Source: Candidatus Enterousia sp. (GTDB taxonomy: Bacteria; Pseudomonadota; Alphaproteobacteria; Rs-D84). Taken from it: a stretch of 24,539 nucleotides of DNA. Of this stretch, positions 6,552 through 24,539 are shown one piece after another. The stretch lies in NCBI GenBank assembly GCA_045652565.1, contig JAZRUN010000062.1, positions 1 to 24,539 of the forward strand, written 5' to 3'. The position numbers and the translations under genes are program-made. The notes under the pieces are model-generated. The model did no database searches. It saw only the letters and a program-made list of their open reading frames with translations, and was not told the DNA's origin. Each line of letters starts with the position of its first letter. Positions within the stretch are counted from its first letter, which is position 1.

Positions 6552-6626
6552 GGTCCCATCGTCTAGCGGTTAGGACATCGGATTCTCATTCCGGTAACAT
6601 GGGTTCGATTCCCATTGGGACTGCCA
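6552..6626 (+). tRNA. tRNA-Glu(CTC)
   Basis: Cloverleaf: acceptor GGTCCCA/TGGGACT (G1:U72), anticodon loop TT-CTC-AT, T-loop TTCGATT, encoded CCA. Confidence 0.95.
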
Positions 6627-6637
6627 AAAATCAAGAA

Positions 6638-6659
6638 TCACCCGTTTGGGTGACTTTTT
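6638..6659 (+). terminator. Intrinsic terminator after tRNA-Glu
   Basis: TCACCC-gttt-GGGTGA followed by CTTTTT. Confidence 0.7.
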
Positions 6660-6682
6660 GTTAGATTTCTAAGCATTTCACA

Positions 6683-6734
6683 AGTTCGTAAGTCTGGCAT
6701 TGAAAACAGCCACCGTTTTGCACATTTACGAACT
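6683..6734. repeat. 52-bp palindrome-ended element, copy A1
   Basis: AGTTCGTAA-34 nt-TTACGAACT, preceded by TTCACN. Confidence 0.9.
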
Positions 6735-6743
6735 ATTAAAAAG

Positions 6744-6767
6744 AAAAGGTTAGAAATCTAACCTTTT
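6744..6767. terminator. Perfect hairpin, likely terminator of the lipoprotein gene
   Basis: AAAAGGTTAG-aaat-CTAACCTTTT. Confidence 0.65.
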
Positions 6768-6798
6768 TCATGCTTCGTATACATTGTGGGTGTTTGAA

Positions 6799-7221
6799 TT
6801 ATTTAAACAATATTTCTAGTTCCTTTTGTGTATTTTCATCTATCAGTTTTGCTTGCAAATGTTGATTAGGGTTTGCGGATTCCACTTCTTGCCAGAAACA
6901 TTTGCGGTCATTTAAATTAAATCCCATTTCAATCCAACCTTCTCGCAATCCAATATTTTTGGTGTCTAATATATAAAAATCTAATTTGTAATCAGTATTT
7001 GAATACGTTATGAACGTGTTCTTCACGCTTTCCTTTTTCAATTTTATATCTTTTCCATCAACAGATATTACAGCATAATTTTTATATAATTTTATATCTG
7101 TTGTTGGATTGCCTTCTTCTGCACCATTACAGAAAAAACCAGTCCCAACATACACAGGTTTGTCAGAACAGGCACTTAGACTAATTAAAATTGGCAAAAT
7201 TAACAAAGATAATTTTTTCAT
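6799..7221 (-). CDS. Hypothetical lipoprotein (cargo 1)
   Basis: MKK, hydrophobic core, lipobox LSAC; AAGGAG RBS. Confidence 0.8.
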   Translation of the reverse strand: MKKLSLLILPILISLSACSDKPVYVGTGFFCNGAEEGNPTTDIKLYKNYAVISVDGKDIKLKKESVKNTFITYSNTDYKLDFYILDTKNIGLREGWIEMGFNLNDRKCFWQEVESANPNQHLQAKLIDENTQKELEILFK

Positions 7222-7251
7222 TTTTTACTCCTTAGTTATAGCATCATTATA

Positions 7252-7344
7252 TCATAAATTTTTCAAAAACACTTTAATATCTTTCCCGAACTGCAACAAA
7301 TCTTTGATTTCATCGGTTCGTGAATTGCACAGTATGTCCTGCCA
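7252..7344 (-). repeat. Right-end segment B1 (att-like, ends in CTGCCA)
   Basis: Homologous to 8041-8139. Minus frame from the CCA reads WQDILCNSRTDEIKDLLQFGKDIKVFLKNL*. Confidence 0.85.
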
Positions 7345-7352
7345 AAATAGAT

Positions 7353-7377
7353 AAAACCGCATTTTTGCGGTTTTTTT
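7353..7377 (+). terminator. Terminator-like hairpin at the left end of unit 2
   Basis: AAAACCGCA-tttt-TGCGGTTTT(TTT), positioned like the hairpin after the tRNA. Confidence 0.65.
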
Positions 7378-7400
7378 ATTAGTTTTGCAACACTTTCACG

Positions 7401-7452
7401 AGTTCGTAAGTTGAGTGTCAAAAACCGTCCCCGTTTCGCTGATTTACGAACT
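7401..7452. repeat. 52-bp palindrome-ended element, copy A2
   Basis: Same arms and length as A1. Confidence 0.9.
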
Positions 7453-7455
7453 TTT

Positions 7456-7992
7456 TTATTTGGTTTTTATCAAAAATGTATCCAAATATGGAAACAATTT
7501 CATCCTTTCAGCAGACCAGGCTTTGGTGCTTTGTAAATTTGGAATTGGTTTCAAAGTCATTAAATAATCTATGGTTCGTTTTGTCTCTGCTGAACGCTCT
7601 TTGTACGCAGTTAGACATTTAAAACCAGAGCTGAGAATAAAGAAATATAATGCGGACAGATAATTATAACCATGGTCGTTATCTTTGAAAAACGCAGCCT
7701 GGTCATTTTTTTTATAATAACCGCATGTATCACCAATTCTGATAAGTTTGTTATTAACATCAAATCTTATATAATGATCATCTGTACGCAGTTTATGAAA
7801 AATAGAAAAATGCAAGCTTTTATCGCTTTGGTCGTTCTGTTTATTCTGAGCAAATATAGCTTCTTCATATGAATAATTAACGCGTTTTACCTGCAAAGGA
7901 ATAGTTTTAGTTATTTGAACCATTTTTTGTAATAACAATATGGATAAATCTCTCTGTTCCATTTCTATTGATTTTTCATCAAGGCCTGCCAT
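7456..7992 (-). CDS. Hypothetical protein (cargo 2)
   Basis: AT-rich ORF with no recognised motif. Start at MAGLDE (7992) or 8025; the stop lies 3 nt from A2. Confidence 0.7.
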   Translation of the reverse strand: MAGLDEKSIEMEQRDLSILLLQKMVQITKTIPLQVKRVNYSYEEAIFAQNKQNDQSDKSLHFSIFHKLRTDDHYIRFDVNNKLIRIGDTCGYYKKNDQAAFFKDNDHGYNYLSALYFFILSSGFKCLTAYKERSAETKRTIDYLMTLKPIPNLQSTKAWSAERMKLFPYLDTFLIKTK

Positions 7993-8040
7993 TGTCCATC
8001 TCTTTATTTTATGAGAAATATACAATAAATCTTGATATTG

Positions 8041-8139
8041 TCAATAAAAACAATTGTTCAAAAATAGTTTGATTTCTTTCCCAAACTGCAACAAATCGCA
8101 TATCTTATTAGTTCGTGAATTGCACAGTATGCACTGCCA
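8041..8139 (-). repeat. Right-end segment B2 (att-like, ends in CTGCCA)
   Basis: Minus frame reads WQCILCNSRTNKICDLLQFGKEIKLFLNNCFY*. Confidence 0.85.
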
Positions 8140-8296
8140 TCCGCTTTCGCTTACGCTACAGCGAGATTGAGCATCACGCCGTAGCCAGCGCGTTCGGAGC
8201 AAAAAACTTTATCAATTCCTGATTTTTTATTCATCGAAATTAAGCACCAGCATAGGCGGACCTGTCTCGCCGTAGTTTTACGAAGGCGGATGCCAT
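8139..8296. repeat. REP/MITE-like element with imperfect terminal inverted repeats
   Basis: Left ATCCGCTTTCGCTTACGCTACAGCGAGA matches the reverse complement of right TCTCGCCGTAGTTTTACGAAGGCGGAT. TGCCAT occurs at 8135-8140 and 8291-8296. Confidence 0.7.
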
Positions 8297-8307
8297 ACTT
8301 ATTCACT

Positions 8308-8359
8308 AGTTCGTAAGTTGGTAATTAAAAACAGACCCTATTTTGCTAATTTACGAACT
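8308..8359. repeat. 52-bp palindrome-ended element, copy A3
   Basis: Same arms and length as A1 and A2. Confidence 0.9.
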
Positions 8360-8372
8360 TTTAATATCATTA

Positions 8373-8672
8373 TTAAAATCCCAAAGCATATAAACCAAAC
8401 AAAGAAATGGCAAATAAAGGGAACAATATAATCGAAACCCAAGCGGCTATGTTTTTGTGTGTTGGTGCTATATATCTTGCAATAAAGTAAGCCACAACAG
8501 ACTGTACCAAGAACCAAATAATCAGAAAAGGTGTTTTGAATTTTTCAAAATCACCAATAAAATGGGCTATATATGCAGATAGCACTGAAACAAAATATAC
8601 TGTGAACAATACAGCAGGTACTAATAATATCCAACGCAAAATATTTAGGTTGTCATTTTTTTGTTTTTTCAT
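8373..8672 (-). CDS. Hypothetical membrane protein, about 3 TM (cargo 3)
   Basis: Three hydrophobic stretches; AAGGAG RBS. Confidence 0.78.
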   Translation of the reverse strand: MKKQKNDNLNILRWILLVPAVLFTVYFVSVLSAYIAHFIGDFEKFKTPFLIIWFLVQSVVAYFIARYIAPTHKNIAAWVSIILFPLFAISLFGLYALGF

Positions 8673-8719
8673 TTTTTACTCCTTTTGCAGTTCGTCTAGC
8701 ATTTTTTGGAGCTAAACAA

Positions 8720-9268
8720 TTATCTTTTTGGTTTATAAACTGTGTGGCCCTGGGTCACATAATCTTTTAAAACCTTTTCGCCCGCATCTTGTTCTATTTG
8801 GCCGTAAACGGTTATACCGCGTTTTTTAAATTCGTTGTGCCAGTTTTGCTTAAACCCTTCGTCAAATCCGGTTATTTTGGTGACATGCCTAGAGGGAACG
8901 CCATAATAAACCGCTTTGATACCCGACCACATAATACTGCCCAGACACATCATACACGGTTCAGATGTCACATACATACTCAAATTATATGGCGATAAAT
9001 CATAAGTCCCCAGTTTCTTTTCTGCCATTTTTATCGCATTCATTTCGGCGTGATTATTACTGCAAGATTTATTCACAACATTATTGGCGGCCTTGGCAAC
9101 CAGATTGCCTTTTGAATCATAAATGGCGGCCAAAAACGGGCCATAACCTTTGTTGATATGTTTTTTCAACTCTTGCTGTAAATCCAATATAATTTTATTG
9201 GCCCTAATCAGTTTGCGATTATCAATTTTTTCATTAGCAATCACAGATGTTTTGTTATTTGTTTTCAT
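8720..9268 (-). CDS. Zn-dependent nucleoside/nucleobase deaminase (CDA superfamily, guanine deaminase-like)
   Basis: GPFLAAI, HAE and EPCMMC motifs, then WSGI..VYYG. Confidence 0.9.
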   Translation of the reverse strand: MKTNNKTSVIANEKIDNRKLIRANKIILDLQQELKKHINKGYGPFLAAIYDSKGNLVAKAANNVVNKSCSNNHAEMNAIKMAEKKLGTYDLSPYNLSMYVTSEPCMMCLGSIMWSGIKAVYYGVPSRHVTKITGFDEGFKQNWHNEFKKRGITVYGQIEQDAGEKVLKDYVTQGHTVYKPKR

Positions 9269-24110: not shown

Positions 24111-24197
24111 GGGCGTGCGCCGGAGTTGGAGAGCCGGGGCAGACTGTAAATCTGTTGGCTTAAGCCTGAGGTGGTTCGAATCCACCCACTCCCACCA
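24111..24197 (+). tRNA. tRNA-Tyr(GTA)
   Basis: Anticodon loop CT-GTA-AA, long variable arm, GGTGG-TTCGAAT-CCACC, encoded CCA. C4:U69 mismatch and C at position 8. Confidence 0.88.
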
Positions 24198-24286
24198 AAA
24201 ACACAAACCGACCTTTATGGTCGGTTTTTGTTTTTGGCTATGGGTGGTGAGATGAGAACCACGGGTTCGAAACCAAGTAGATTTCG
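24182..24286 (+). repeat. 105-bp exact direct repeat, copy 1 (tRNA-Tyr 3' 16 nt plus downstream hairpin)
   Basis: Identical to 24435-24539 (period 253 bp). Confidence 0.95.
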
Positions 24287-24434: not shown

Positions 24435-24539
24435 CCACCCACTCCCACCAAAAACACAAACCGACCTTTATGGTCGGTTTTTGTTTTTGGCTATGGGTGG
24501 TGAGATGAGAACCACGGGTTCGAAACCAAGTAGATTTCG
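24435..24539 (+). repeat. 105-bp exact direct repeat, copy 2 (runs off window)
   Basis: Identical to 24182-24286 up to the last base of the window. Confidence 0.95.

Follow-up and report, generated by a model that had tools for sequence, protein, structure and literature searches.

A 52-bp double palindrome at the joints of shuffled, tRNA-anchored gene cassettes in Candidatus Enterousia

A stretch of 24,539 nt from Candidatus Enterousia sp. (assembly GCA_045652565.1, contig JAZRUN010000062.1, positions 1 to 24,539), hereafter termed the window, contains three copies of a 52-bp element with inverted arms, which follow a tRNA-Glu(CTC) gene and are separated by genes. The element probably forms the core of the sequence by which neighbouring cassettes are joined in hypervariable, tRNA-anchored arrays, and cassettes would be gained, lost and reshuffled there. 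Its role as a junction is well supported; a role as a recombination site is probable from the comparison of related genomes, and from the same comparison we infer that the site itself may be the recombination substrate. A first-pass annotation, drawn from the letters of the window, had likewise proposed a binding or recombination site. This remains the best reading of an element that is confined to arrays, bounds shuffled cassettes, carries no attC boxes and matches no Rfam family, with the qualification that the recombination is deduced from comparative breakpoints.

The genus belongs to the order Rs-D84 and has genomes of less than 1 Mb; together with its relatives it represents a group of Alphaproteobacteria that is widespread in the guts of farm animals and whose genomes measure about 0.9 Mb (PMC12306168). 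The assembly that contains the window comprises 663 kb in 78 contigs and is 82% complete, and the site-bearing relatives, which are named Candidatus Enterousia sp. or Alphaproteobacteria bacterium, come from ruminant and horse guts. The upkeep of a flexible gene pool in such reduced genomes is the question on which the arrays bear. They contain restriction-modification genes, cell-wall enzymes, acetyltransferases and many exported proteins of no assigned function.

Anatomy of the Site and Its Junction

The three copies lie on the forward strand at positions 6683–6734, 7401–7452 and 8308–8359 (sites 1, 2 and 3), where they are recognized by their arm pattern and by a covariance model, R1, built from 114 distinct sites (E=8e-13, 2e-13 and 6e-12, respectively). 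The pattern AGTTCGTAAGT, 28–36 nt, ATTTACGAACT has exactly three matches in the window and none expected from 100 shuffles, which bears out the fixed arms described in the first-pass annotation, and a repeat search groups the copies as one 63-nt family with 73–79% identity. The two arms form nine perfect pairs plus a G:T and a T:A. Length invariance, which had been claimed from these copies, extends to the genus: the spacing between the 8-nt arm cores is exactly 34 nt in every genus site found, with 28–44 nt permitted in the search. The site is a nested palindrome in which outer arms of 11 nt, inverted half-sites reading AGTTCGTAART, enclose an inner pair, the left member of which measures about 9 nt and ends in AAAAC while the right one reads GTTTY; between the two lies a 7-nt centre, ANCCACC. 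The distances between the right arm and the stop codon of the cargo gene had been reported correctly as 64, 3 and 13 nt for sites 1, 2 and 3; this proximity is weakly discriminating, as an open frame ends to the right at 80% of sites versus 58% on the control side.

The repeat unit far exceeds 52 bp, with conservation from about −160 to +52 in the unit alignment. The joint is thus a junction of about 215 bp with the site as its core, and its internal order was derived from an alignment of 112 internal units. At the left end stands the extended −10 promoter of the cargo gene, followed by a B segment, a two-way terminator (the T module), a spacer with TTTCAC and the site. The B segment contains an arm-like GTTCGTGAA motif and terminates in CCTGCCA, which resembles a tRNA 3′ end; the CACGAAC-type motif noted earlier is indeed present in both B segments of the window. 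In the first unit, tRNA-Glu(CTC) stands where B would otherwise be, and in many genomes about 57 nt separate this tRNA from the first site. What is repeated between units is the last 6–8 tRNA-like nucleotides (CCTGCCA) together with terminator, spacer and site, the homology starting at about −63. The possibility that the B segment is a decayed 3′ half of tRNA-Glu was rejected, since agreement is limited to CCTGCCA and a GGTTCG motif.

A typical cassette is a self-contained expression unit on the strand opposite to the tRNA, in the order right arm, cargo gene (whose stop codon abuts the arm), own promoter, B segment with CCTGCCA, two-way terminator, TTTCAC and left arm. Short-form joints occur in the loci L167 (G094:C22) and L182, where a B segment ending in ...CTGCCAAAAATCAAAAAC is fused at the AAAAAC box to the right half of a site, and both the terminator and the left arm are missing. 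Such joints read as the possible product of a deletion or exchange between two AAAAAC boxes.

Distribution of the Sites

In the genome that contains the window, the covariance model detects seven sites, namely the three of the window and four on a second contig, C34. An exact-pattern search of the same genome gave the window copies only and was misleading, because the degenerate arms of the C34 sites (GTTCGAAA or GTTCGCAA) hid these four copies. A hidden Markov model of the whole junction likewise finds units only in the window array and the C34 array. All seven sites are thus located at cassette boundaries of two tRNA-anchored arrays and not at ordinary gene ends, and no copies are scattered elsewhere in this genome. 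Within each locus all detected sites have one orientation, and a genome holds up to 8–11 of them.

Among relatives, sites with exact arms (spacer 28–44 nt) are present in 14 of 36 genus genomes and absent from the 24 genomes that represented other genera of the order. Model R1, the scan that the first-pass annotation had proposed, matches 66 of 107 genus genomes; among other genera of the family it matches 3 of 14 genomes, and among other families 1 of 29. Sites are also carried by 111 metagenome stretches, and the viral contigs scanned gave no match.

A short element with inverted ends and several copies might be taken for a selfish palindromic repeat of the repetitive extragenic palindrome (REP) or miniature inverted-repeat transposable element (MITE) type that spread by chance within the locus. 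This is highly improbable. The own genome has seven copies, in two arrays only, always at cassette boundaries and co-oriented in each array, and across many genomes the first copy keeps its distance from the anchoring tRNA; the many dispersed intergenic copies typical of REP, MITE and bacterial interspersed mosaic elements were not found. Nor do the arrays have the short regular spacers of clustered regularly interspaced short palindromic repeats, the copies in the window being 718 and 907 nt apart with genes in between.

Anchoring on the 3′ side of tRNA genes is seen with tRNA-Glu(CTC), tRNA-Leu(TAG), tRNA-Gln(TTG, CTG) and a tRNA-Asn remnant, in part through sister classes of the site. On C34, a sister-class site follows tRNA-Leu(TAG). 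In the sister arrays L197, L198, L199, L200 and L201, sites with arms GTTCGAAAGT and ACTTTCGAAC and different interiors have the same 50-nt length as the main class; these arrays are anchored after tRNA-Gln(TTG) or tRNA-Gln(CTG), and their cargo includes a histidine phosphatase, an RNase T-like exonuclease and a nucleotidyltransferase. At L210:9372-9590, a partial tRNA-Asn(GTT) beside a P4-type integrase island is followed by a terminator, a spacer and a site of a third arm class (GTTCGATAAT...GTTATCGAAC). Hybrid arms, with GTTCGAAA on one side and TTACGAAC on the other, are common among sites, as expected from exchange between site classes.

Cassettes and Their Cargo

Sixty-eight intervals between sites contain 114 open reading frames (ORFs) in 78 families, and 39 of the intervals consist of a single ORF. 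Pfam matches among the cargo include GNAT acetyltransferases, HAD hydrolases, a HinP1I-type restriction-modification pair, lysozyme, peptidases, transporter parts, flavodoxin and others; the three cargo genes of the window have no Pfam match. One cargo protein of other arrays (alignment A1) has a match to PF00277, the serum amyloid A family (E=1e-20), which is unusual in bacteria.

The same cassettes are found in different genomes with a different order and different neighbours. The cassette of gene 3, last in the window, is the first after the tRNA in L026 (87% identity), and the cassette of gene 1 recurs at L165:12327-13103 between other neighbours. The association with mobile cargo that the first-pass annotation had supposed is thus supported by comparison, in that cassettes are shuffled between genomes at the sites. 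These arrays appear to be the main variable loci of the genomes in question.

Exchange at the Joint

The position of exchange was examined in 61 pairs of sites that have the same right flank (≥92%) and a different left flank. In about 90% of these pairs the break is inside or at the site. In 32 pairs none of the three interior blocks is the same, so that the break falls at the right arm; the right block alone is common to 20 pairs, the centre and right blocks to 3 and all three blocks to 5. In unrelated pairs, all blocks differ in 74% and the right block alone is common in 16%. Where the left flank is the same, all blocks differ in 7 of 13 pairs, and the interior is therefore not tied to the left flank.

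Furthermore, the ends of segments with at least 90% identity cluster at +50 to +59, just past the right arm, and at −60 to −51, the boundary between CCA and terminator. The right arm marks the exact point at which unique cargo begins. Reassortment also affects the B and T modules, and in contigs of other samples the right half of site 1 is joined to other left halves at position 6703. Taken together, the distribution of breakpoints and the reassortment of modules indicate that the joint is a recombination hotspot of reassorting modules. Change-point fits for the crossover were dominated by the general conservation of the junction.

Double-Stranded Sequence or Folded Strand

The inverted arms also raise the possibility that the site acts as a folded single strand, either as an attC-like DNA hairpin or as an RNA hairpin in the 3′ untranslated region that affects stability or processing of the cargo mRNA. 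Pairing of the 11-bp arms is possible, and standard pairs account for 93% of the cells in the proposed structure. Genes 2 and 3 have the site between stop codon and terminator, and the dominant G10/T43 is a wobble pair on the plus strand only. The first-pass annotation had accordingly proposed a bottom strand, relative to the cargo, that folds like attC with G:T pairs and a bulge, or else a small structured RNA, and had stated that the plus strand folds better.

None of these proposals is supported by the data. Predicted DNA folding is about equal on the two strands of sites 1, 2 and 3 (−9.2, −7.4 and −7.8 kcal/mol on the plus strand; −9.4, −8.1 and −8.0 kcal/mol on the minus strand). The covariation test suggested at the outset gave no support either: column shuffles match the observed pairing in 126 of 500 cases, and the 10 compensated cells are not above expectation (6.8). 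Position 7/46 of the arms is broken in 21 of 114 sites and compensated in 3. RNAalifold predicts no pairs on the site alignment, helix counts lend no support to a structure, and mutual information links neighbouring columns only, with no long-range complementary covariation of the interior blocks. In addition, the terminator of gene 1 precedes the site, and the gathering-score scan of the window against Rfam matched three tRNAs and nothing else, in agreement with the earlier statement that no known family is involved. A folded strand is therefore an improbable explanation. Because the arms lack covariation and their changes are mostly uncompensated, a double-stranded protein-binding or recombination site is favoured, in which the arms would be independent half-sites read in double-stranded DNA.

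Search for the Enzyme

The window contains no PF00589 match. The genome encodes two Xer-like tyrosine recombinases on other contigs, together with one degenerate homologue, and XerC/D are the sole complete tyrosine recombinases found in it. In five other genomes no tyrosine recombinase lies next to the arrays, and a search of five genomes for Y1/HUH and IS110 transposases found none. Serine recombinases are present in 113 of 120 good genus genomes. A recombinase, relaxase or resolvase had been put forward as the actor, and none could be tied to the sites by these searches.

Two further candidates for the array enzyme were considered and rejected. The active P4-type integrases of relatives are located at other tRNAs without sites. 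The integrase near a site in L210 is integrated into the body of the tRNA-Asn, the site lying merely downstream of the tRNA, and this classical integrase crossed over within the tRNA and not at the site.

The degenerate homologue is a 334-aa P4-type integrase homologue (G000:C33:2501-3505, P0001) with intact arm-binding and central domains. It is a single-copy protein in 34 of 36 genus genomes, at 58–76% identity, and its relatives outside the genus are distant only. In the catalytic domain the first arginine is replaced, the lysine hairpin is shortened and the box II histidine is changed to aspartate; the tail that would bear the tyrosine is missing. The protein is a plausible candidate for a site-binding factor, and no finding ties it to the sites.

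A mechanism can be sketched from these elements. The site would be double-stranded DNA bound by protein through the outer 11-bp half-sites and the inner pair around the 7-nt centre, and cassettes would be gained, lost and reshuffled there. The enzyme could be the host XerC/D, a serine recombinase of the genus or an integrase acting in trans, and the degenerate P4-type homologue may serve as the factor that binds the site.

Recombination Site or Regulatory Element

Several results weigh against a dedicated recombination site. About 200 site-bearing loci (1.4 Mb) contain no tyrosine recombinase that belongs to the array, the two matches being integrase loci that were fetched on purpose, and serine recombinase homologues are present in only 4 of 201 site-bearing loci, 1.4–7.5 kb from the site. 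The breaks are spread over the right arm, the GTTT box, the AAAAC box, the left arm and the boundary between CCA and terminator, with no single crossover point, and the interior is weakly linked to the right flank and unlinked to the left. Among the loci searched there is no triple of empty and occupied sites, and no circular cassette or excision junction is seen among the assembled contigs, a form of data that reveals alternative joints at repeats but is unable to display circles, RNA ends or strand. The mosaic could equally stem from general recombination through a conserved intergenic module.

These points lead to an alternative in which the site binds protein for regulation or insulation, for example as an operator for the degenerate integrase homologue, within a conserved promoter-terminator module that is swapped by homologous recombination or gene conversion. 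Consistent with it, the junction contains a promoter and a two-way terminator, B, T, left interior, centre and right interior behave as freely reassorting modules with breakpoints in several conserved stretches, no array-linked recombinase was found and a predicted DNA-binding integrase relic is conserved in the genus. However, the invariant stretches measure just 11–18 nt, which is short for RecA-driven exchange. The half-sites are not enriched elsewhere, as AGTTCGTAA occurs 11 times in the genome versus about 7 expected and 8 of the 11 occurrences lie inside arrays. A resemblance to attachment sites is seen in the strict spacing of 34 nt, in the anchoring at tRNAs and in the sister classes behind other tRNAs, and homogenization within arrays was rejected, site likeness being 74.4% within arrays versus 74.0% between arrays. 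On balance we consider the regulatory account unlikely, if deserving of serious attention, and retain the site as the probable core of the joint at which cassettes are exchanged.

Comparison With Known Systems

We rate the system as a variant of cassette-array gene capture. A more far-reaching and only tentative proposal is that the arrays form a gene-capture platform, a functional analogue of the integron in which self-expressed cassettes would be inserted behind several tRNA genes at 52-bp double palindromes by an enzyme other than IntI; one possibility would be XerC/D or a serine recombinase steered by the degenerate P4-type homologue. The layout resembles that of integrons and of tRNA-associated elements, but the system departs from the defining features of both, since attC boxes, intI and an element-borne integrase are missing and nothing points to a folded strand.

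As in sedentary chromosomal integrons, the arrays consist of mostly single-ORF, co-oriented accessory cassettes with a palindromic site at the 3′ end of each gene, the cargo is highly diverse and includes GNAT acetyltransferases, and the sites within one host are similar. In contrast to integrons, the arrays have no intI, attI or Pc and start after tRNA genes. The attC boxes read RYYYAAC on the gene-proximal and GTTRRRY on the distal side. Their absence had been noted before and is confirmed here, as either strand of the site reads 5′-A GTTCGTA ... TACGAAC T-3′, with GTT/AAC on the outer arm side (5′-GTTCGTA...TACGAAC-3′) and a fixed length of 52 bp. Moreover, the sequence is conserved and not the pairing, most cassettes have their own promoter and terminator, and, unlike in attC, the interior of the site shows no linkage to the upstream gene. 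To our knowledge, the host class has been reported to be devoid of integrons.

The second comparison is with tandem integrative elements at tRNA genes, namely genomic islands and the tycheposons of Prochlorococcus, which are likewise hypervariable, seeded 3′ of tRNA genes and composed of elements in series, with a tRNA-like 3′ end repeated at element borders, adaptive cargo and streamlined small host genomes (bioRxiv 10.1101/2020.12.28.424599). Tycheposons have their own tyrosine or large serine recombinase and use a tRNA piece of about 40 nt as attachment site (bioRxiv 10.1101/2020.12.28.424599). By contrast, the units described here are 0.7–2 kb long, mostly single-gene and without recombinase; no element-borne integrase was found in the site-bearing loci searched. 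CCTGCCA alone recalls a tRNA, and the joint is a non-tRNA 52-bp double palindrome past the terminator.

The pdif modules of Acinetobacter plasmids and the integrative mobile elements exploiting Xer (IMEX) are similar in that small modules are bordered by short inverted-repeat sites and have no recombinase of their own. Sites of the dif type are 28 bp long (11-6-11) and alternate in orientation around modules, whereas the 11-bp arms of the present site are 30 nt apart, have one orientation and do not resemble the dif consensus. A last group comprises the serine invertases and resolvases, whose crossover sites span about 26–28 bp and have a centre of 2 bp. In many copies the inner left half-site (TATCAAAAAC) appears to resemble the hix half-site. 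Unlike hix, gix or res site I, the inner repeats are 7 nt apart and nested in a second pair of arms, and no array-linked serine recombinase is found despite the frequency of such enzymes in the genus.

If the sites do recombine, the arrays would represent a cassette system independent of IntI and attC and would add a new site architecture, probably with a new enzyme-site pairing, and would offer a tool with which uncultured gut symbionts could be engineered. Given its small size, sharp limits and hundreds of natural variants, the site lends itself to binding and recombination assays.

Further Features of the Window

The window array (positions 6627–8719) has a G+C content of 32.7%, as opposed to 43–44% in both flanks. 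Its anchor, tRNA-Glu(CTC), lies on the forward strand at 6552–6626 (ARAGORN, Rfam) and is followed by the two-way terminator hairpin of unit 1 at 6636–6655 (both strands, terminator scan), the T module homologous to T of the internal units, and by the conserved spacer at 6656–6682 (+), which ends in TTTCAC according to column counts in the 112-unit alignment. Beyond site 1, the terminator hairpin of cargo gene 1 is located at 6744–6767 on the reverse strand. A hairpin of this type (AAAAGGTTAGA...TCTAACCTTTT) abuts the right arm of several unrelated cassettes in many loci. Gene 1 (6799–7221, −) encodes a predicted lipoprotein of 140 aa, identified by a signal peptide with an LSAC lipobox, and is preceded on its own strand by an extended −10 element, TGATATAAT (7246–7256, −), the predicted promoter at the left end of the junction consensus. 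B segment 1, with its GTTCGTGAA motif and CCTGCCA end, extends from 7257 to 7344 (+; repeat family D3 and junction alignment), and the two-way terminator hairpin that forms the T module of unit 2 is found at 7353–7374 (both strands). The terminator scan called these three hairpins, which adjoin the sites, and did not call the site itself.

Cargo gene 2 (7456–7992, −) encodes 178 aa from ATG, or 189 aa from a TTG at 8025, and has a predicted sigma-70-like promoter at 8017–8044 (−; TTGACA, 16 nt, TATATT; 11 of 12 positions). B segment 2 (8052–8139, +) was found by repeat search and is 82% identical to B segment 1. In unit 3 the T module is replaced by a REP-like insertion of about 150 bp (CTCGCCGTAGC...GCGAAGGCGGAC) at 8140–8296, recognized by sequence reading. 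Similar CTCGCCGTAGC...GCGAAGGCGGAC units lie 3′ of tRNA-Ala, tRNA-Leu(TAA), tRNA-Val and tRNA-Lys in the same genome. Cargo gene 3 (8373–8672, −) encodes a 99-aa membrane protein and belongs to a cassette that lacks its own B and T modules.

A decayed fourth site is present at 8689–8741 (+), with left arm AGTTCGTCTAG and right arm GTTTATAAACT, as judged by alignment with the terminal site of L165. The ACGAACT motif listed near 8690 in the first-pass annotation, read here as AGTTCGT, is its left arm. The decayed site overlaps the 3′ end of a cytidine/deoxycytidylate-type deaminase gene (8720–9268, −; Pfam PF00383). At least four other genomes have a match to this gene on the right side of their arrays.

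Near the end of the window, the last bases of tRNA-Tyr and about 89 nt downstream of it recur exactly 253 bp later (24182–24286 and 24435–24539). A related module, GGTTCGAAACCAAGTAGATTT..., follows tRNA-Gln(CTG), and looser forms follow tRNA-Gly(CCC) and tRNA-Pro(GGG) in the same genome. This is a second kind of tRNA-linked repeat.

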